From Alphaproteobacteria bacterium (GTDB taxonomy: Bacteria > Pseudomonadota > Alphaproteobacteria > UBA828): 64,000 nucleotides of DNA. The stretch is taken from NCBI GenBank assembly GCA_965214705.1, contig CBDCCI010000002.1:1792001-1856000 (forward strand). Reading direction: 5' to 3'. Shown here piece after piece: positions 2,290 to 57,083 of this stretch (its first letter is position 1; every line of letters starts with the position of its first letter). The position numbers and the translations under genes are program-made. Under the pieces are notes generated by a model. The model saw only the letters and a program-made list of their open reading frames with translations. It was not told the origin of the DNA and made no database searches.

Positions 2290-4005
2290 ATGCCGAAGGT
2301 CACGCCCTCACCCCTCAGCAGCGCCGGTTTGCCGTCGCCTGCGGTGGTTTCGGCGGCGCTGGCGACCCTGCAGGCGGAGCTTGCCGAGGAGCGCGCGGCG
2401 CGCCGTGCGACCGAAGCAGCCCTATGCGAAGCGGAGCAGGCACGCGGCGCGGCGGAGGCGGCGAGGCAGACGGCGGAAGCGCGGGCGGCACGGCTGGAGG
2501 CCGAGAACGCGCACAGCGCGGAGCAGATCAGCCGGCTTGAGCATCTCAACAAGGAGCTCAGGAAGGCGCTGTTCGGTCCGCGCTCCGAGAAGCTCAACGA
2601 GGACGAGCGCCAGCTTACGTTCGAGGAGTTTTGGGCGGCGATCGCTGAAGCCGGCGGTCGGCCCGAGGCAGATGACCAGGAGCAGGACGAGGGGGCTGGC
2701 GGCAAGCGCCGGCGGCGCTCTTCCCGGGGGTCGCGCAGCGGGGTGCGCTTCGGGCCCCAGGTCGACCGGCGCGAGGAGGTGATCGAGCCGGACACGATCA
2801 TGTGCCCCTGCGGCTGCGGCGAGATGACGAAGATCGGCGAGGACCGCAGCGAGCGGCTGGACTATGAGCCGGCGAAGTTCACCGTCATCGAGACCGTGCG
2901 CCCCCGCTACGCCTGCAACAAGTGCAAGGGCGGCGGGGTGGTGCAGGCGTCGGCGCCCGCCTCTCTGGTGGAGGGCGGCCTTCCCACCGAGGCTCTTCTG
3001 GCGCAGGTGCTGATCGCGAAGTACGGCGATCATTGCCCGCTCTACCGTCAGTCGCAGATTTACGAGCGCTCGGGGATCGAGGTTCACCGTGCGACGCTGG
3101 CGACGTGGGTGGGGCAGGCGTCGTTTCACCTGCGCCCCGTGGTCGCTTGCCTGAAGGATGAGCTGAAGAAGTCGGATCACCTGGGTCTGGACGAGACCAC
3201 GATCCGCGTTCTCGACCCGGGCCGGGGCAAGACGAAGACGGGCTACATGTGGACCCTTGTGCGCGACGAGCGCCACTGGAGCGGCGCCGACCCGCCGGGC
3301 GTTGTCTATCGCTATGAGCCCGGTCGCGGCGGCAAGTATGGCGCCAGGCTCTTGAAGGGCTTTTCGGGGACGGTGCAGCTCGACGCCTACTCGGGCCACA
3401 ACATCCTGGCGCGGCCGGACCGGCCCGGCGGCCCCGTGACGCGGGCTCTGTGCTGGGCGCACGTCAGGCGCAAGCTGAAAGAGGTGTACGACTCGAGCGC
3501 CTCGCCGATCGCGCTGGCTGGCCTGAAGCGGATCGCGACGCTCTATGCGATCGAGGAGAAGATCCGGGGCGAGCCGCCGGCGACGCGTCAGGCGATCCGC
3601 TGGGAGGAGTCGGCGCCGATCGTGAACGCCTTCGGTGTCTGGCTCGACGAACAGCGCTCGCGGGTCTCACCGCGCTCGCGTCTCGGCGAGAAGCTCACCT
3701 ATATCGCCAACCAGTGGGACGGGCTGCTGGAGTTCCTGCACGACGGCCGCGTCGAGATCGACTCGAACCTGGTGGAAAACCGAATCCGCCCGCTGAAGCT
3801 CACCGCCAAGAATGCGCTCTTCGCCGGCAACGACGAGGGTGCGCAAGCCTGGGCCCGCATCGCATCGCTGATCGAGACCTGCAAGATGAACGGCGTCGAG
3901 CCTTACGCCTGGATGCGGAGCACGCTCGAGAAGATCGCCAAGGGTCACCCGCAGTCCAAAATCCAGGAACTGCTGCCGTGGAACTTCGAGCCCGAGACAA
4001 ATTGA
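2290..4005 (+). CDS. tnpC: IS66-family transposase TnpC
   Basis: Coiled coil followed by LFGPRSEK, zinc finger CPCGC...CNKC, LDET, CWAHVRRK and IDSNLVENRIRP, ending ELLPWNF. Confidence 0.93.
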   Translation: MPKVTPSPLSSAGLPSPAVVSAALATLQAELAEERAARRATEAALCEAEQARGAAEAARQTAEARAARLEAENAHSAEQISRLEHLNKELRKALFGPRSEKLNEDERQLTFEEFWAAIAEAGGRPEADDQEQDEGAGGKRRRRSSRGSRSGVRFGPQVDRREEVIEPDTIMCPCGCGEMTKIGEDRSERLDYEPAKFTVIETVRPRYACNKCKGGGVVQASAPASLVEGGLPTEALLAQVLIAKYGDHCPLYRQSQIYERSGIEVHRATLATWVGQASFHLRPVVACLKDELKKSDHLGLDETTIRVLDPGRGKTKTGYMWTLVRDERHWSGADPPGVVYRYEPGRGGKYGARLLKGFSGTVQLDAYSGHNILARPDRPGGPVTRALCWAHVRRKLKEVYDSSASPIALAGLKRIATLYAIEEKIRGEPPATRQAIRWEESAPIVNAFGVWLDEQRSRVSPRSRLGEKLTYIANQWDGLLEFLHDGRVEIDSNLVENRIRPLKLTAKNALFAGNDEGAQAWARIASLIETCKMNGVEPYAWMRSTLEKIAKGHPQSKIQELLPWNFEPETN

Positions 4006-53745: not shown

Positions 53746-54993
53746 CTAGATGATCGGCTCCAGGTGGGCGTTCATGTCGGGATCCTTGGTCAGGTCGCAA
53801 CGATCGATCACGTCGCTCGGGTACATCTGCGAGTAGCTCTCGAAGATGTTCCAAGTCTGGTTCTGGCACTCGGCCATGTGCATGTCCTGGATGACGTGGT
53901 TGGTCACTGGATCGACCACCATGTGCCCGGCCGGGCCGTCCCAGGCGATGTCGCCGCTGCGCAGCGCCGCGATCACGTCCTCGCGCTCGTGGCTGCCGGC
54001 GGCCTTGACGCCGAGCGACCAGAGCATGGTGCCGAGGTAGCCGCCGATGCCCACCGAGTTAAGGTACTGGGCATCGTCGCCGAAGCGCTCCTGATAGCGT
54101 TTTACGAACTCGACGTTGGCGGGGAGCTGCAACTCCTGGAAGTAGGGCTGGGCGCTGACGATGCCGTTGCCTTCCTCGGCGCTGAGCTGGACGTGTTCGT
54201 TGCCGACGCCGAAGGTCACCGAGACGATCGGGATCTCGTTCAGCATGCCGGCCGCGTACCACTGGCGGTAGAAGCCGGTGTGCGCCGCGCCCACGAGACA
54301 GGTGGAGAGCCAGTCGGGCTTCGCTTCCTGAATCTTGGCGATGGCCGGGCCGAACTCCGCCACGTCGAGGGGGAAGAAGTCCTTGGTGATGACTTCGGAA
54401 CTTTGTTCCTTGGCAAAGACCTCGGTCCACTTGCCGATAATCTGGGGCGCGTTGTAGTCGGCGCCGATGTAGTAGCAGCGCTTGCCGTGGGTCTTGAAGC
54501 CATAGTCAGCCATCGGCTTCACCCACTGCACGGCGGTCACGCCGCTGACGAAATTGTTGATGTCGCAGACGCCGCCTTCGTAGATCACGCTGTACCAGAG
54601 GAGCGTCTGGAAGCGGCGCAGGATCGGGCGGATCACCTCGCGCGAGGCGCTGGTGATGGCGCCGTGCACCAGGTCGACACGCTCCTTGAGCGCCGCCTCC
54701 TGGGCGTACTGCGCGTAAAGCTCCATGTTGGACTGCGGGTCGTACTTGATCAGCCGGATCTTCTTGCCGAGCAGGCCGCCGGCCGCGTTGATCTCCTCGA
54801 CCGCGAGCTCGCAGGTCTGGGTCATCGGCGTGCCGTAGATGTCGAGGCCGCCGGACTGGTCGAAGATACTGGCGACGACGATCTCGTCGTCGTCGGCATA
54901 GGCCTTGGGCGAGGCCGCCAGGCCTGCTGCCACCAGTGTTGCGGCACTCCCAACCGTGCCCTTGAGGAAACCTCTCCGAGTGCTGTCGAACAT
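53746..54993 (-). CDS. ABC substrate-binding protein (UrtA/AmiC-like), Tat-exported
   Basis: Tat motif TRRGFLKG, EEINAAGGLLG, TSASRE and YEGG. Confidence 0.9.
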   Translation of the reverse strand: MFDSTRRGFLKGTVGSAATLVAAGLAASPKAYADDDEIVVASIFDQSGGLDIYGTPMTQTCELAVEEINAAGGLLGKKIRLIKYDPQSNMELYAQYAQEAALKERVDLVHGAITSASREVIRPILRRFQTLLWYSVIYEGGVCDINNFVSGVTAVQWVKPMADYGFKTHGKRCYYIGADYNAPQIIGKWTEVFAKEQSSEVITKDFFPLDVAEFGPAIAKIQEAKPDWLSTCLVGAAHTGFYRQWYAAGMLNEIPIVSVTFGVGNEHVQLSAEEGNGIVSAQPYFQELQLPANVEFVKRYQERFGDDAQYLNSVGIGGYLGTMLWSLGVKAAGSHEREDVIAALRSGDIAWDGPAGHMVVDPVTNHVIQDMHMAECQNQTWNIFESYSQMYPSDVIDRCDLTKDPDMNAHLEPII

Positions 54994-55151
54994 GGGTTCT
55001 AGCCCCTCCCTAAGTTCATCGAATGCGCGCTCCCGCGCCCTGCCGCAGGGTAGGCGCACGGCGCTGCCCGCGCAACGCTGCGGCGTGCGGTAGAATACTC
55101 GCGCGCTACAGGATTCGCCTCTCTTCGAAGGCTTTTAGCGGATACAGCCCG

Positions 55152-55787
55152 CTACGTCCGCCTCCGATCCGGCCGATAGTCCCTGGGATCGAGACAGGCA
55201 TCGTAGAAGTCCCGGTCCATCCGGAACCAGTCGGTCCGATCAATACCCCGCCGCACGGTCGCGTTCGGCCCGACGGGGAAAGCCGAGACCACTTTCAACC
55301 AGCGCCCAGCGCTTCGCGAGATGTCGCGGACTTCCCGCGCTACTTCGCTGAGGTCCTGGTCCTGACTGAAAATGATCGCCACATCCAGCTCCGCGTTTCG
55401 CGCCATGCGCACCACGTCGAGGCCGAGCCGGAGATCGATTCCCTTCTCCCTCTCGACCGGAAGCTCGTGAATCGTACCGTCAGGCAGCCGGATCCGCTCG
55501 ACCCGATAGCGCAGGCTTCGTGACGTGACGACGATGCCCGCTCGCCGCATTGCGGTTAGTCGCCGCGTCCAGTAGCCGTGCCACATCGGCGACCTGTCGG
55601 CGCTGGGTACGCCGGTATAGAAGCGGACGCCGCAATCGACCCAACCTCGATCGGCGCACACCGCGTCGGCAAGCCTGCGGGGATCGAAGTTGGGATGATG
55701 GTAGCCGAACGCGTCCTTCGCGTGCCGGTACAGGTTCTGCCCGTCGATAAACGAGACGGCGCGTTTGATTTTAGGTTCGGCGGGCAT
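55152..55787 (-). CDS. NYN-domain (PIN-like) ribonuclease
   Basis: FIDGQNL, RFYTG, EKGIDL.L.LD and FSQDQDL form the acidic catalytic set. Confidence 0.88.
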   Translation of the reverse strand: MPAEPKIKRAVSFIDGQNLYRHAKDAFGYHHPNFDPRRLADAVCADRGWVDCGVRFYTGVPSADRSPMWHGYWTRRLTAMRRAGIVVTSRSLRYRVERIRLPDGTIHELPVEREKGIDLRLGLDVVRMARNAELDVAIIFSQDQDLSEVAREVRDISRSAGRWLKVVSAFPVGPNATVRRGIDRTDWFRMDRDFYDACLDPRDYRPDRRRT

Positions 55788-55794
55788 GGCGGAA

Positions 55795-55843
55795 GAAATA
55801 ACCCCGCCGGGGCCTTGCGGCGAGTCCGGCGGGGACCAAGTGT
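55795..55843 (-). ncRNA. Candidate structured RNA in the NYN 5' leader
   Basis: Sense strand reads CCCCGCCGG-ACUC-GCC-GCAA-GGC-C-CCGGCGGGG: a 9-bp GC stem, an internal loop and a GNRA-capped inner stem. Confidence 0.55.
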
Positions 55844-55848
55844 CCGGC

Positions 55849-55878
55849 ACCATAGATGTGCCTGCAGCCGAGCGTCAA
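55849..55878 (-). promoter_or_regulatory. Sigma70-type promoter for the leader and NYN gene
   Basis: TTGACG (55878-55873)-N18-TATGGT (55854-55849). Confidence 0.55.
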
Positions 55879-55910
55879 CGTGAAAACCCAGGCGGAGCGT
55901 TGTCGGCGGC

Positions 55911-57083
55911 TCACCCGGCGAAACCGAGGGTGCGCTCGATCAAGGCGCGGAGGATCAGCGCCGCGTCCACCATTTCGGCGAGAGGGATGAACTCGTTGGC
56001 GGCGTGGCTCATGGCGCCGTCGCCGGGGCCGAAATTGACGATCTCGATGCCGTCGCGGGCGAAGAAGCGGCCGTCGCTCGCGGCGAGCGCGTTGAGCACC
56101 GCCGGCGGCTTCCCCAGGCGCTCTTCGATGGCCGCCACCAGCGCCGACACGTGGGGGCCGTCGAGGGGCGCGGAGAAGCCGTTGGTGCCGACCAGGCGGC
56201 GCCCGGTGCAGGTCCCCCTGGGCTCGCCGGCGCTGGCCACCAGGGCCTCGATCTCGGTGAAGGCCGCATCGACTGATTCTTCCGGCAGGAGCCGCCGGTC
56301 GATCAGGAGCGTGCAGCGGTCGGGCACGACATTGGGGTTTTCGCCGGCATGGATCGTGCCGATGTTCATGGTCGAAACTTTTTCGCCGCTGCGCCGTGCG
56401 GCGAGCCGCGGCGCGAGCTCGGCCTGGAGCCTCTCCAGCAGGCGCATCATGCGGAGGATGGCGTTGTCGCCGGCCGGCGGATCGCCGCCGTGGGCGGCCC
56501 GGCCGGCGGTCTCGATCTCGACCCAGAGGATGCCGCGCTCCTCGATGATGATCTGGTTCTCGGTGGGCGAGCCGAGCACCAGGGCGTCGGGCTCGATCAG
56601 GCCTTCCTCGCGCAGGAAGGCGGTGCCCTCCGGGCCCAGGCGTTCCTCGTCGCCGGCGAGCACGAAGACCACGCTTCCTAGCCTGGGCCCGCCGCGCCGG
56701 GCGATTTCGTCCGCGAGCCAGAGGTGCACCGCCGCCGAGCCCTTGCAGTTGTTGGCGCCGGGCCCGTAGATGCAGCCCTTCTCCAGCGTCGCGGCGAAGG
56801 GGTCGGTGCGCCAGGCCGCGCGGTCGCCGGTGCCGACCGTGTCGATGTGGGCATTGAACACCACGCAGGGCGAGCCCTCGCCCAGCCGCGCAACCAGGTT
56901 GGCGATCGGCGGGGTCCGCATGGGCATGGAGACCTCGTAGCCGGCCGCCTTGAAATGCTCGCCGGCGGCTTCGCAGATCGCCTGCGTGTCGCCGGGCGGC
57001 GTGGTGGACGGGATCGCGATCAGCTCGGCGAGGAGGGCGTGCAGCGATTCGGCAATGGATTTCTCGGTGTCCGACACGGTCAC
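55911..57083 (-). CDS. M20/ArgE/DapE-family metallohydrolase
   Basis: NAHIDTV, W..DPF, DEE, GRAAHG, NVVPD and H..NE. Confidence 0.85.
   Translation of the reverse strand: MTVSDTEKSIAESLHALLAELIAIPSTTPPGDTQAICEAAGEHFKAAGYEVSMPMRTPPIANLVARLGEGSPCVVFNAHIDTVGTGDRAAWRTDPFAATLEKGCIYGPGANNCKGSAAVHLWLADEIARRGGPRLGSVVFVLAGDEERLGPEGTAFLREEGLIEPDALVLGSPTENQIIIEERGILWVEIETAGRAAHGGDPPAGDNAILRMMRLLERLQAELAPRLAARRSGEKVSTMNIGTIHAGENPNVVPDRCTLLIDRRLLPEESVDAAFTEIEALVASAGEPRGTCTGRRLVGTNGFSAPLDGPHVSALVAAIEERLGKPPAVLNALAASDGRFFARDGIEIVNFGPGDGAMSHAANEFIPLAEMVDAALILRALIERTLGFAG

Follow-up and report, generated by a model that had tools for sequence, protein, structure and literature searches.

A solitary gene for a putative NYN-type ribonuclease, preceded by its own promoter and a short hairpin RNA, raises the question of whether that RNA is a partner of the enzyme, a control element of its mRNA or a feature belonging to some other part of the locus. 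The gene is located among those of an M20 peptidase, a periplasmic binding protein and an alpha/beta hydrolase within the window (the whole 64,000-nt stretch of DNA that was analysed). Promoter, hairpin, leader and NYN gene had each been described in the initial annotation, and all were found on the minus strand as follows:

55092-55910, minus strand: whole cassette of ~820 bp (promoter, leader RNA, NYN gene and ~60 nt 3' tail), delimited by the similarity gap against NYN-less relatives
55849-55878, minus strand: sigma-70-type promoter-like site (-35 TTGACG, 55878-55873; 18-nt spacer; -10 TATGGT, 55854-55849)
55835-55843, minus strand: short single-stranded 5' end of the leader, (A)CACUUGGU, with the predicted transcript start at ~55843-55841 as placed from the -10 position
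55802-55834, minus strand: leader hairpin, 33 nt (CCCCGCCGG / ACUC / GCC-GCAA-GGC / C / CCGGCGGGG, then UUAUUUCUU)
55834-55826 with 55810-55802, minus strand: stem P1, 9 bp, GC
55825-55822 and 55811, minus strand: 4x1 internal loop, 5' ACUC and 3' bulged C
55821-55819 with 55814-55812, minus strand: stem P2, GCC/GGC
55818-55815, minus strand: GCAA loop
55793-55801, minus strand: U-rich tail UUAUUUCUU, abutting the stem and flagged as terminator-like
55152-55787, minus strand: NYN ribonuclease gene (predicted; LabA/MARF1-type, PIN-like), 211 aa, ATG 55787, stop TAG 55154-55152

The cassette and its protein

The NYN gene is favoured to begin at ATG 55787 because most homologues are 208-211 aa in length; its frame is open from ATG 55853, for which the mechanical ORF list gives 233 aa, and in some databases the annotated protein has 230-233 aa. 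The U-rich tail is followed by CCGCC and then by the ATG, and these 14 nt between stem and start codon contain no Shine-Dalgarno sequence, in agreement with the initial annotation. Its description of the gene as "stand-alone" also holds across the homologous loci, where neither a conserved protein partner nor a candidate protein antitoxin was identified next to NYN.

NYN (PF01936) was the sole Pfam family matched at E <=0.01 (residues 13-154; E 1.4e-7, 32.5 bits against a cut-off of 24.2). NCBIfam returned just a chance-level match to BcsE (E 0.16), and a sequence-profile search of the PDB gave nothing meaningful (best E 0.86). The fold predicted by AlphaFold2 (pLDDT 76.3) was nearest to 2qip (Z 14.9, rmsd 3.5, 160 of 162 residues aligned), which was also the first hit of Foldseek (E 2.8e-7), and the NYN domain of MARF1 (5yaa) aligned over 147 residues (Z 12.2); residues 3-200 of the model align with NYN structures. 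On the strength of this model, the protein is assigned an NYN-type PIN-like fold and is a predicted ribonuclease. Residues D15, N18, D118, D124, S141, D143 and D145 are invariant in 16 sequences. In the available text of PMC5499597, four conserved acidic residues of the NYN domain are described as binding metal, and the invariance of D15, D118, D124, D143 and D145 would place these residues at catalytic positions. For the group to which 2qip belongs, NYN.COG1432 (LabA-like), the same text gives nuclease activity as being without functional study as of that 2017 classification.

On one side the cassette borders the stop codon of the M20 peptidase gene (TGA 55913-55911), on the other the region upstream of the binding-protein gene. 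In at least nine genomes of the same genus that have no NYN orthologue, these two genes adjoin and neither the hairpin nor its motif is present. Similarity to these NYN-less relatives ends at 55075-55091 and returns at 55910-55920, with ~8-30 nt of other sequence in between (13 nt in genome G014), and in a sponge-metagenome run two contigs pass straight from 55087 or 55091 to 55920. Neither a target-site duplication nor terminal repeats were seen at the ends of the cassette. No conserved 3' element was found past the stop codon, where the sequences of different loci are unrelated, with the exception of a short box in one alphaproteobacterial subclade. Judged by these genome comparisons, the unit is a self-contained, horizontally mobile one-gene cassette, made up of a sigma-70 promoter, a leader RNA of ~50 nt and a LabA/MARF1-type NYN gene.

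The promoter-like site is unique within 54900-56200 (shuffled sequences average 0.2), and an equivalent -35/-10 pair (score >=9/12) was identified at 63 of 81 loci. The distance from the end of the -10 box to the stem is 13-17 nt at 74 of 81 loci, and because this distance is fixed the leader RNA is predicted to make up the opening ~50 nt of the transcript. Four close genomes share both hexamers and, without a single change, the sequence from just past the -10 box to the U-tail, while the flanking 1.1-1.4 kb are 85-92% identical. The 5' end of the leader carries a semi-conserved box, A-(A/C)-U-U-G. Among the contigs of an RNA run (X20), which contained 6% of the sampled words, one reaches from the coding sequence of a relative into the 3' arm of its hairpin, possibly as a result of DNA carry-over.

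Conservation of the leader hairpin

From a single GC-rich sequence, the hairpin is unremarkable. The 50-nt leader is predicted to fold with -25.0 kcal/mol (z -2.77; equalled by 1 of 200 shuffles), its antisense 50-mer folds as well (-26.1), and the complete intergenic stretch of 136 nt is unexceptional (z -0.22; equalled by 82 of 200 shuffles). Only the sense strand has the GNRA tetraloop, as was claimed earlier, GCAA reading UUGC on the opposite strand. The significance of the hairpin rests on comparative data.

The motif was matched exactly once per source in 82 of 82 sources (the window and 81 homologous loci), always upstream of NYN and on the sense strand. The hairpin of the window scored 74.8 bits with the covariance model (R1), and the median hairpin energy across loci is -24.3 kcal/mol. 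In a MAFFT alignment of 64 sequences, 98.7% of cells are paired, a percentage inflated by the choice of the model-building alignment with a script that demanded at least eight P1 pairs; double changes occur in 8 of the 12 pairs, and none of 500 shuffles matched this. Seventeen loci and L014 were motif carriers left out of model building. With all 82 sequences, in an alignment fitted to the model, pairing stands at 97.0% of cells and double changes affect 9 of 12 pairs (57 cells; again matched by 0 of 500 shuffles), and sliding the pairing partner lowers pairing to 35-63%. The 5' side of the internal loop begins with A, and the 3' bulge is C, at 79 of 82 loci each. P2 is variable and contains inserts of up to ~60 nt. 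A pseudoknot pairing the 5' CUUG box with the CAAG of the loop was rejected on inspection of the alignments by eye: no co-variation links them, CAAUUG being found together with GCAA, and CACUUG with GAAA and GUAC. The test that the initial annotation had proposed, conservation and covariation upstream of homologous NYN genes, thus came out in favour of the hairpin.

A GC-rich hairpin with an immediate U-run has the form of an intrinsic (Rho-independent) terminator, and this form is seen in the window and across loci: at least five T are found within the first 8 nt of the tail at 78 of 82 loci, and the tail starts with TTATT at 66 of 82. The tail UUAUUUCUU could act as the U-tract of a terminator, as a place where ribosomes load or as one where the RNA is cut. 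The initial annotation was silent on the U-run, which gives the hairpin a terminator-like form right where the NYN transcript begins. For the Dehalococcoidia variant of the motif no stable fold is predicted (-12.8 kcal/mol, z +0.95), yet the conserved bases are kept.

Within 61 related genomes, the motif was identified only in the five that carry the NYN orthologue. It is absent beside seven other NYN paralogues of the same genome and beside eight weak NYN matches in relatives. When metagenomes were searched with the RNA pattern first, an NYN homologue (45-85% identical) was found to begin ~70 nt or less downstream in 36 of 39 contigs. The motif heads other ORFs in two of the 39 (L149, L168), nothing recognisable follows it in one (L146), and at a further locus (L045) a 125-aa unknown ORF lies between motif and NYN. 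The promoter-leader module may therefore serve other genes, and its presence before non-NYN ORFs weakens a strict NYN-RNA partnership. Two tandem copies of the motif were seen in one of the 39 contigs (L162); no tandem repeat was found in the window at 55050-56000. The exact hairpin occurs once in its own genome (150 of ~5,900 first-look candidates scored), which rules out a dispersed REP-like repeat. Taken across the sequences compared, the hairpin RNA is a genuine covarying motif, tightly tied to the NYN subfamily.

This subfamily is unusually conserved across phyla (55-95% identity). The homologous loci carry nine phylum labels, which derive from MAG bins and are in some cases suspect: identical or near-identical proteins are labelled both Gammaproteobacteria and Gaiellaceae, and likewise Spirochaetia and Dehalococcoidia. 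The upstream genes differ at almost every locus, and motif and promoter move with NYN. In a neighbour scan of 102 ORFs from 52 of 80 loci, genes with a mobile-element or defence role were identified at 14-16 of the 52 (TrwC, integrase, DDE transposase, Cas3, HsdM, AbiEii, DruA, Uma2, WYL and capsid). Many loci lie among housekeeping genes, and a seven-member Dehalococcoidia clade keeps stable synteny. No NYN homologue was detected in 50,697 phage records, while 72,556 plasmid records yielded one real homologue (55% identity, on a 2.8-Mb replicon of Methylobacterium bullatum) and two distant NYN genes. Besides M. bullatum, cultured carriers include Blastochloris sulfoviridis DSM 729 (L098), Nitratireductor arenosus CAU 1489 (L089) and Salibaculum halophilum WDS1C4 (L104). 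Three loci were found in IMG/VR, two of them with the motif and the third ending at the 5' side, before the upstream region.

No match to Rfam 15 was obtained at the hairpin (54900-56100, E <=10) or in ten diverse loci covering 63.7 kb (E <=1), so that the hairpin is without an Rfam family. Mimicry of the asymmetric loop of SRP RNA was considered and discarded, there being no SRP match in Rfam. In the full-text literature searched, mostly outside the subscription journals, no account was found of an RNA motif preceding NYN genes in bacteria, and "NYN" does not occur in the text of the paper on 224 candidate structured RNAs (PMC5737381).

Possible roles of the leader

The best overall explanation, which could as readily prove wrong as right, is that the leader throttles NYN and that its hairpin is the RNase's own recognition site, giving negative feedback. 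Most transcripts from the cassette promoter would end after the hairpin and yield a small hairpin RNA; little read-through NYN mRNA would be made, and the leader would in this way restrain a potentially harmful RNase. Kept across phyla are the ACUY/C internal loop, the A of UUAUUU, the AYUUG box at the 5' end and two sets of fixed pairs, CCCC/GGGG and GG/CC, even in the clade whose mid-stem has lost its Watson-Crick pairing. A terminator has no need of these features, and NYN is the only protein co-inherited with them throughout; hence the hairpin is most probably the recognition site of the RNase. That unpaired bases are conserved points to specific recognition, for which NYN would be the simplest candidate, with the RNA serving for feedback or as an antidote. 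Binding or cutting of the leader by NYN, for instance in the UUAUUU tail, would then exert negative feedback on NYN production.

Some readings of the locus do without any such recognition. That the hairpin is the terminator of the M20 peptidase gene had been raised in the initial annotation, and the element is indeed terminator-like and lies 77 nt past the M20 stop; the NYN-less relatives nevertheless have the M20 gene and no hairpin, and upstream genes vary while motif and promoter follow NYN. The hairpin is not the terminator of the M20 gene, because promoter, RNA and gene form an insertion between otherwise adjacent genes. A DNA palindrome (operator or recombination site) would account for the antisense strand folding equally well, but the compensatory changes, the excess of G.U over A.C cells (20 to 5), the one-sided U-run and the variable P2 fit an RNA and not an operator. 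Were the sequence instead part of a 233-aa NYN coding region from ATG 55853, as the open frame and the longer database calls would allow, the stem-to-ATG spacer should not vary between loci by non-multiples of three, as it does, nor should most homologues have the shorter length. All three are contradicted by the comparative data and are hardly credible. A tiny riboswitch of the HMP-PP (thiS) type, in which a small molecule or ion at the internal loop would set read-through into NYN, has in its favour the conserved internal-loop bases within a terminator stem and a precedent for a terminator-embedded aptamer in the available text of PMC6478431. It is nonetheless very unlikely: just 6-8 nt precede the hairpin in the predicted transcript, leaving no space for an alternative antiterminator fold or pairing partner, only ~5 unpaired conserved bases are available to an aptamer, and neither a metabolic gene context nor an Rfam match was found.

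Two further alternatives are somewhat less unlikely. The cassette could be a portable, general-purpose expression module not linked to NYN in particular, its 5' hairpin blocking 5'-end-dependent decay and its U-rich tract loading ribosomes without a Shine-Dalgarno sequence in many phyla. Such a module would suit the scarcity of SD-like sequences (18 of 80 loci), the short and fairly constant spacer (AUG at a median of 18 nt past the stem), the ORFs other than NYN at L045, L149 and L168 and the spread over many phyla. A stabiliser needs neither a conserved 4x1 loop nor fixed stem sequences, however; the 6-8 unpaired nucleotides at the 5' end are long for a protective hairpin, the motif is tied to the NYN subfamily both in the 61 genomes and in the 36 of 39 RNA-first matches, and the Dehalococcoidia form is conserved though predicted to be unstable, all of which makes this reading improbable. 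A type III toxin-antitoxin-like pair is doubtful too. Here an abundant, terminated hairpin RNA of ~50 nt would bind and neutralise NYN; if transcription or the RNA failed, as in a cell that is infected by a phage or has lost the cassette, NYN would be free to degrade cellular or invader RNA. The order of promoter, short RNA, terminator and RNase gene resembles that of ToxIN-type loci, and the missing protein antitoxin, the patchy distribution across phyla, the mobile-element and defence neighbours, the tandem motif copies of L162 and a weak PADLOC match to the NYN candidate HEC-09 all point the same way. Against it stand the single motif copy at 82 of 82 loci and the lack of a tandem repeat in the window, a toxin fold that is NYN and not ToxN/AbiQ-like, the many loci amid housekeeping genes with the syntenic Dehalococcoidia clade, the phage and plasmid counts given above and the failure of HEC-09 to protect.

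If the hairpin is an antidote or feedback site, one hairpin would be terminator, product and recognition site together, and the cassette would offer a minimal way of moving a dangerous RNase safely among unrelated hosts. A bolder and rather unlikely form of this proposal is that a single hairpin RNA of ~50 nt, its ends set by the promoter and its own terminator and requiring neither repeats nor processing, is a dedicated antidote or sensor of NYN, carried as a selfish or defensive unit of ~0.8 kb across at least nine bacterial phyla and notably in sponge-associated communities. Similar hairpin-plus-U-run leaders before other NYN subfamilies would turn this into a general rule for stand-alone bacterial NYN RNases. 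LabA-like NYN proteins are a very large family in bacteria, and a small defined RNA inherited with one NYN subfamily across phyla is a concrete candidate for a substrate or ligand. The leader motif is also a well-supported structured RNA new to Rfam 15; should it turn out to be no more than an expression module, it would nonetheless represent a compact unit of promoter and leader, present in loci labelled Proteobacteria, Chloroflexi, Acidobacteria and others.

Comparison with known systems

Type III toxin-antitoxin systems (ToxIN, CptIN, TenpIN) have in common with this locus a short non-coding RNA that immediately precedes an endoribonuclease gene and shares its promoter, a terminator placed between RNA and gene that would set their ratio, the absence of a protein antitoxin and a mobile, patchy distribution. 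The leader described here is one hairpin that doubles as the terminator-like element, whereas type III RNAs form an array of 2-6 direct repeats; the RNase has an NYN/PIN-like fold instead of the ToxN/AbiQ fold. Type III toxins are defined as being of the ToxN/AbiQ/CptN type, and the type III order of promoter, RNA, terminator and toxin gene is matched in form only. The RNA-controlled RNase module proposed in the initial annotation is therefore upheld in part: its hairpin is conserved, covarying, linked to NYN and without an Rfam family, whereas membership of type III fails on toxin fold and repeat array.

The rne and rnc leaders of E. coli are comparable as structured 5' UTR elements that may be bound or cut by the RNase encoded downstream. 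They differ in showing no sequence or structural similarity to the NYN leader, which has no Rfam match, is much smaller and terminator-shaped, and moves with its gene between phyla. In its promoter followed within ~50 nt by a putative intrinsic terminator, which would make a short RNA the default product and read-through rare or aided, the locus also resembles the strong promoter-terminator unit lambda PR'-tR' (6S RNA), the differences being that no Q-like antiterminator protein is encoded here and that the hairpin has conserved non-helical bases.

The catalytic fold predicted for the NYN protein is that of Regnase-1/ZC3H12A and MARF1 (5yaa, as above). Among the stem-loops recognised by Regnase-1 is one in its own mRNA. 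These proteins differ in being eukaryotic and multidomain and in acting on 3' UTRs, and the NYN protein need not share their loop preference. The LabA-like group NYN.COG1432, represented by 2qip, provides the best structural match; no RNA motif is reported for that group in the literature searched, and the subfamily described here stands apart in its unusual conservation. PADLOC HEC-09 is a single-gene NYN candidate matched weakly by profile (E 7e-7, 27.1 bits, residues 8-171). According to the available text of 10.1101/2024.01.29.577857, it protected against no phage tested, and it differs from the NYN protein of the cassette in joining an N-terminal helix-turn-helix-like region to a C-terminal NYN domain.

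Layout of the locus and the NYN protein

The promoter, hairpin leader and stand-alone NYN gene described in the initial annotation are accurate at the window coordinates, and the locus is arranged as follows:

57182-55911, minus strand: M20 peptidase gene, TGA stop at 55913-55911
55878-55873, minus strand: -35 box TTGACG, 32 nt past the M20 stop
55854-55849, minus strand: -10 box TATGGT, spacer of 18 nt from the -35 box
55848-55835, minus strand: unpaired 5' stretch, 14 nt from the -10 box to the stem
55834-55802, minus strand: hairpin CCCCGCCGG-ACUC-GCC-GCAA-GGC-C-CCGGCGGGG
55801-55793, minus strand: tail UUAUUUCUU, then CCGCC
55787-55152, minus strand: NYN gene, 211 aa

A promoter and terminator scan of 54900-56200 found one promoter-like site, against 0.2 expected from shuffles, and scored the hairpin and tail as terminator-like. 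The ATG at 55787 is preferred as start codon over an in-frame upstream ATG at 55853 because the best 120 NYN relatives (68-95% identity) are mostly 208-211 aa in length. Pfam analysis of the neighbouring genes identified the M20 peptidase, a periplasmic binding protein and an alpha/beta hydrolase. The 50-nt leader has a fold energy of -25 kcal/mol (z -2.77); its antisense folds equally well, and the fold energy of the surrounding 136-nt stretch is not exceptional. Taken from the window sequence alone, the hairpin is little proof.

The protein matches the Pfam family NYN at E 1.4e-7 and exceeds the curated cut-off. Residues 3-200 of its AlphaFold2 model (pLDDT 76) align with LabA-like 2qip (Z 14.9, rmsd 3.5, 160 aligned), also the first-ranked Foldseek hit, and the same model aligns with the mouse MARF1 NYN domain (Z 12.2), with weaker alignment to FEN-type nucleases and Rae1/YacP. 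Across 16 aligned sequences, D15, N18, D118, D124, S141, D143 and D145 do not vary, and the aspartates among them would fit the four metal-binding acidic residues of NYN domains described in PMC5499597. PADLOC gave a weak match to the NYN candidate HEC-09, whose domain order, as reported in its preprint (10.1101/2024.01.29.577857), is unlike that of this protein; in that study, HEC-09 protected against 0 of the tested phages.

The leader motif and its association with NYN genes

Relatives of the NYN protein numbered 5109 at E <= 1e-3 (of 5650 candidates). A scan using one genome per species identified 548 related loci, of which the best 80 (55-95% identity) were taken, many of them from closed chromosomes. 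Labels among these 80 include Alpha- and Gammaproteobacteria, Dehalococcoidia, Anaerolineales, Thermoanaerobaculia, Vicinamibacterales, Bryobacteraceae, Gaiellaceae, Binatia, Spirochaetia, Entotheonella, Bipolaricaulota and Micavibrio; they derive from MAG bins, and some are doubtful and may be wrong. The NYN reading frame is broken in 6/80 loci. These six (L032, L038, L046, L048, L065, L087) and the copy in related genome G015 (L014/L022) carry premature stops or frameshifts in NYN while the motif score is still high; they may be genuine pseudogenes or reflect errors of long-read assembly.

The 110 nt upstream of NYN have a near-uniform arrangement across loci: a TTGAC-type -35 box, a TAnnnT -10 box, an A-(A/C)-U-U-G box preceding the stem, a 9-bp stem with CCCC at its start and GG at its end, a 5' internal loop ACU(C/U), a variable capping helix of 3-6 bp (GNRA or other loops, with inserts of up to ~60 nt in some) and, on the 3' side, a bulged C followed by the 3' arm and UUAUUU. 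In a MAFFT alignment of the window and 63 loci, 98.7% of cells were paired, a percentage biased upward because a script had picked loci with 8 or more stem pairs and hairpins no longer than 40 nt. Two-sided changes occurred at 8/12 pairs (e.g. G-C to A-U, U-A or C-G); this covariation was matched by 0/500 shuffles, and sliding the partner reduced pairing to 35-60%. A covariance model made from this 64-sequence alignment detected the motif in 17/17 homologous loci left out of its building, as well as at the 64%-identical gene of G015. There was one model match per source in 82/82 sources (the window and 81 loci), all upstream and on the sense strand; in the 82-row alignment fitted to the model, pairing reached 97.0% of cells and 9/12 pairs were doubly changed (57 cells; shuffles 0/500), which bears out the conservation and covariation upstream of homologues anticipated in the initial annotation. 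The structure is assigned to the NYN sense strand, because G.U cells outnumber A.C cells (20 vs 5), a promoter precedes it and the U-run is one-sided.

No covariance-model match was identified beside the 7 other NYN paralogues of the same genome or beside 8 weak NYN matches in relatives. The 7.9-Mb genome holds a single copy of the motif, and 61 related genomes have it in exactly the 5 orthologue carriers (both whole-genome searches scored a subset of the first-look candidates). An RNA-first degenerate-pattern search of metagenome contigs returned 39 contigs, 36 of which have an NYN homologue (45-85% identical) beginning ~9-66 nt downstream of the motif. The Rfam 15 comparison suggested in the initial annotation returned no family, neither at the motif in the window (E <= 10) nor anywhere in ten diverse loci (E <= 1). 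On comparative sequence evidence, the hairpin is an RNA motif, both conserved and covarying, that is linked to this NYN subfamily.

Several individual loci differ from this arrangement. The promoter-motif module heads a non-NYN ORF in contigs L149 (445-693, plus strand, 83 aa) and L168 (2-325, minus strand, at least 108 aa), with no convincing Pfam family for either beyond a sub-threshold UBX match (E 0.008), and nothing recognisable lies downstream of the motif in L146. In L045, a MAG labelled Binatia, the motif (2499-2551) heads a two-gene unit in which a lower-GC ORF of 125 aa (2563-2940, plus strand), with no Pfam family, precedes NYN (3001-3627). Metagenome contig L162 has two tandem motif copies ahead of a 45%-identical NYN gene, one at 331-368 on the motif strand and the other about 50 nt earlier, their middle stem pairs differing (UAU/AUA vs GCC/GGC); it is the sole repeat-like case in 39 + 82 loci. 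NYN remnants cut short behind an intact motif were seen in L145 and L161. In 4/4 runs, several short contigs of other organisms align solely to window 55796-55856, with loose ends at 55795/55796 and 55838-55841, which would fit many different cassettes with a common motif in one community.

Insertion site and mobility

The M20 gene is present in 20/20 other genomes of the genus, and NYN adjoins it in G006, G017 and G009 only. Nine genomes (G014, G020, G019, G001, G002, G013, G018, G008 and G004) have no cassette, and in these the M20 stop is followed after ~8-30 nt (13 in G014) by the upstream region of the binding-protein gene; therefore, window 55092 to about 55910 represents an insertion of ~820 bp. 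In a run labelled sponge metagenome, two contigs span the same empty junction, and contigs of a run so labelled match parts of the window at an identity of 99% or higher (4/40 pieces). The G015 copy is at another genomic site and apparently frameshifted.

When flanking ORFs were compared all against all, no neighbour recurred across loci except through synteny within a lineage; the largest clusters other than NYN comprised 7 loci, of Dehalococcoidia only. No conservation between loci was found before the -35 box or after the stop codon. Pfam analysis of the flanks covered 102 ORFs at 52 of 80 loci. Unrelated housekeeping genes flank NYN in most of the 52, and mobile-element or defence genes in 14-16 of them (TrwC relaxase, integrases, DDE transposase, Cas3, HsdM, a methylase-HNH fusion, AbiEii, DruA, Uma2, WYL and a phage capsid protein). 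Phylum labels are mixed in a protein tree of 75 sequences (13 label changes vs a minimum of 8, some bin labels being doubtful). Judged from this distribution, the cassette is a mobile single-gene unit. A role as nothing more than the M20 terminator, which the initial annotation had allowed for the hairpin, is excluded by these observations, among them the empty junctions, unshared neighbours and unconserved flanks.

In one alphaproteobacterial subclade (L089, L095, L096, also L081 and L104), a short common box, about CTGAGACACTACC, lies just past the NYN stop; a Nitratireductor contig terminates directly after it, pointing to a repeat or an element boundary. The NYN frame of metagenome contig L140 is broken after codon 32 by a ~200-nt insert between direct repeats GGCTATAACCACCC, which looks like a small insertion element. 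Perhaps by coincidence, an M20 peptidase gene lies beside the cassette in L052 and L056 (Paracoccaceae), as it does in the window.

Leader function and relation to known systems

The distance from the end of the -10 box to the stem is 13-17 nt in 74/81 loci, so the RNA should start 6-8 nt ahead of the stem, which would leave no space for an antiterminator helix to compete. With a median of -24.3 kcal/mol the hairpin is very stable, and in 78/82 loci the 8 nt directly after it include 5 or more T; the element is thus shaped like an intrinsic terminator. The median distance from stem to start codon is 18 nt, and an SD-like sequence occurs in 18/80 loci. The 5' loop opens with A in 79/82 loci (ACUC 37, ACUU 24), the bulged C is kept in 79/82, the tail opens TTATT in 66/82, and the outer CCCC/GGGG and inner GG/CC pairs are almost invariant. 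This conservation of loop, bulge, tail bases and fixed pairs is beyond the needs of a terminator. The hairpin top is probably not the recognised part, since the apical helix tolerates large inserts. In the Dehalococcoidia clade, the three pairs in the middle of the stem give way to G.A-type oppositions and the fold is predicted not to be stable (-12.8 kcal/mol, z +0.95), with the conserved bases and U-run kept. Alignments and covariance searches together show a promoter-proximal, terminator-shaped, covarying RNA co-inherited with a stand-alone NYN RNase.

In the reading to which we give about an even chance, the default product would be a ~50-nt hairpin RNA with little read-through, scarce read-through would keep NYN low, and the conserved bases of loop, bulge and tail would form a recognition site. 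NYN would be the simplest candidate reader, because it is the sole protein travelling with the RNA into such different hosts, and its binding or cutting of its own leader would provide feedback. An antitoxin RNA of type III kind would share the same layout, the lack of a protein partner, the minority of loci with defence or mobile neighbours and the tandem motifs of L162; we consider it unlikely, as the motif is single-copy and the putative toxin has a different fold.

Only slightly less likely is a generic portable leader, whose hairpin would stabilise the mRNA and whose U-run would load ribosomes: it agrees with the rarity of SD sequences, the other ORFs headed by the motif in L149 and L168 and the ORF between motif and NYN in L045, but leaves the conserved loop and near-exclusive NYN link unexplained. 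A terminator-embedded riboswitch is very improbable. An M20 terminator, a DNA palindrome and a coding extension, even taken jointly, are scarcely credible, each being contradicted by the comparative data.

Distant NYN genes in relatives (L016, L017, L018, L020) and in the same genome (L006, contig C3 near 1530572) have a long GC hairpin with a T-run after it, within 5-35 nt of the start, and the L016 and L017 hairpins differ by one compensatory change. Hairpin and T-run before other NYN subfamilies may be a general theme, or terminators of upstream genes.

A full-text search of incomplete coverage found no description of the motif in the literature. The repeat array and toxin type of type III toxin-antitoxin loci were both looked for and are absent from the cassette, and there is no Rfam match; the cassette is a member of neither these loci nor the self-regulating leaders of RNase genes. 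The motif is a real uncatalogued RNA with a clear genetic partner, and its closest likenesses are the RNA-terminator-RNase layout of type III loci, which the cassette resembles, and the leaders by which RNase genes regulate themselves.
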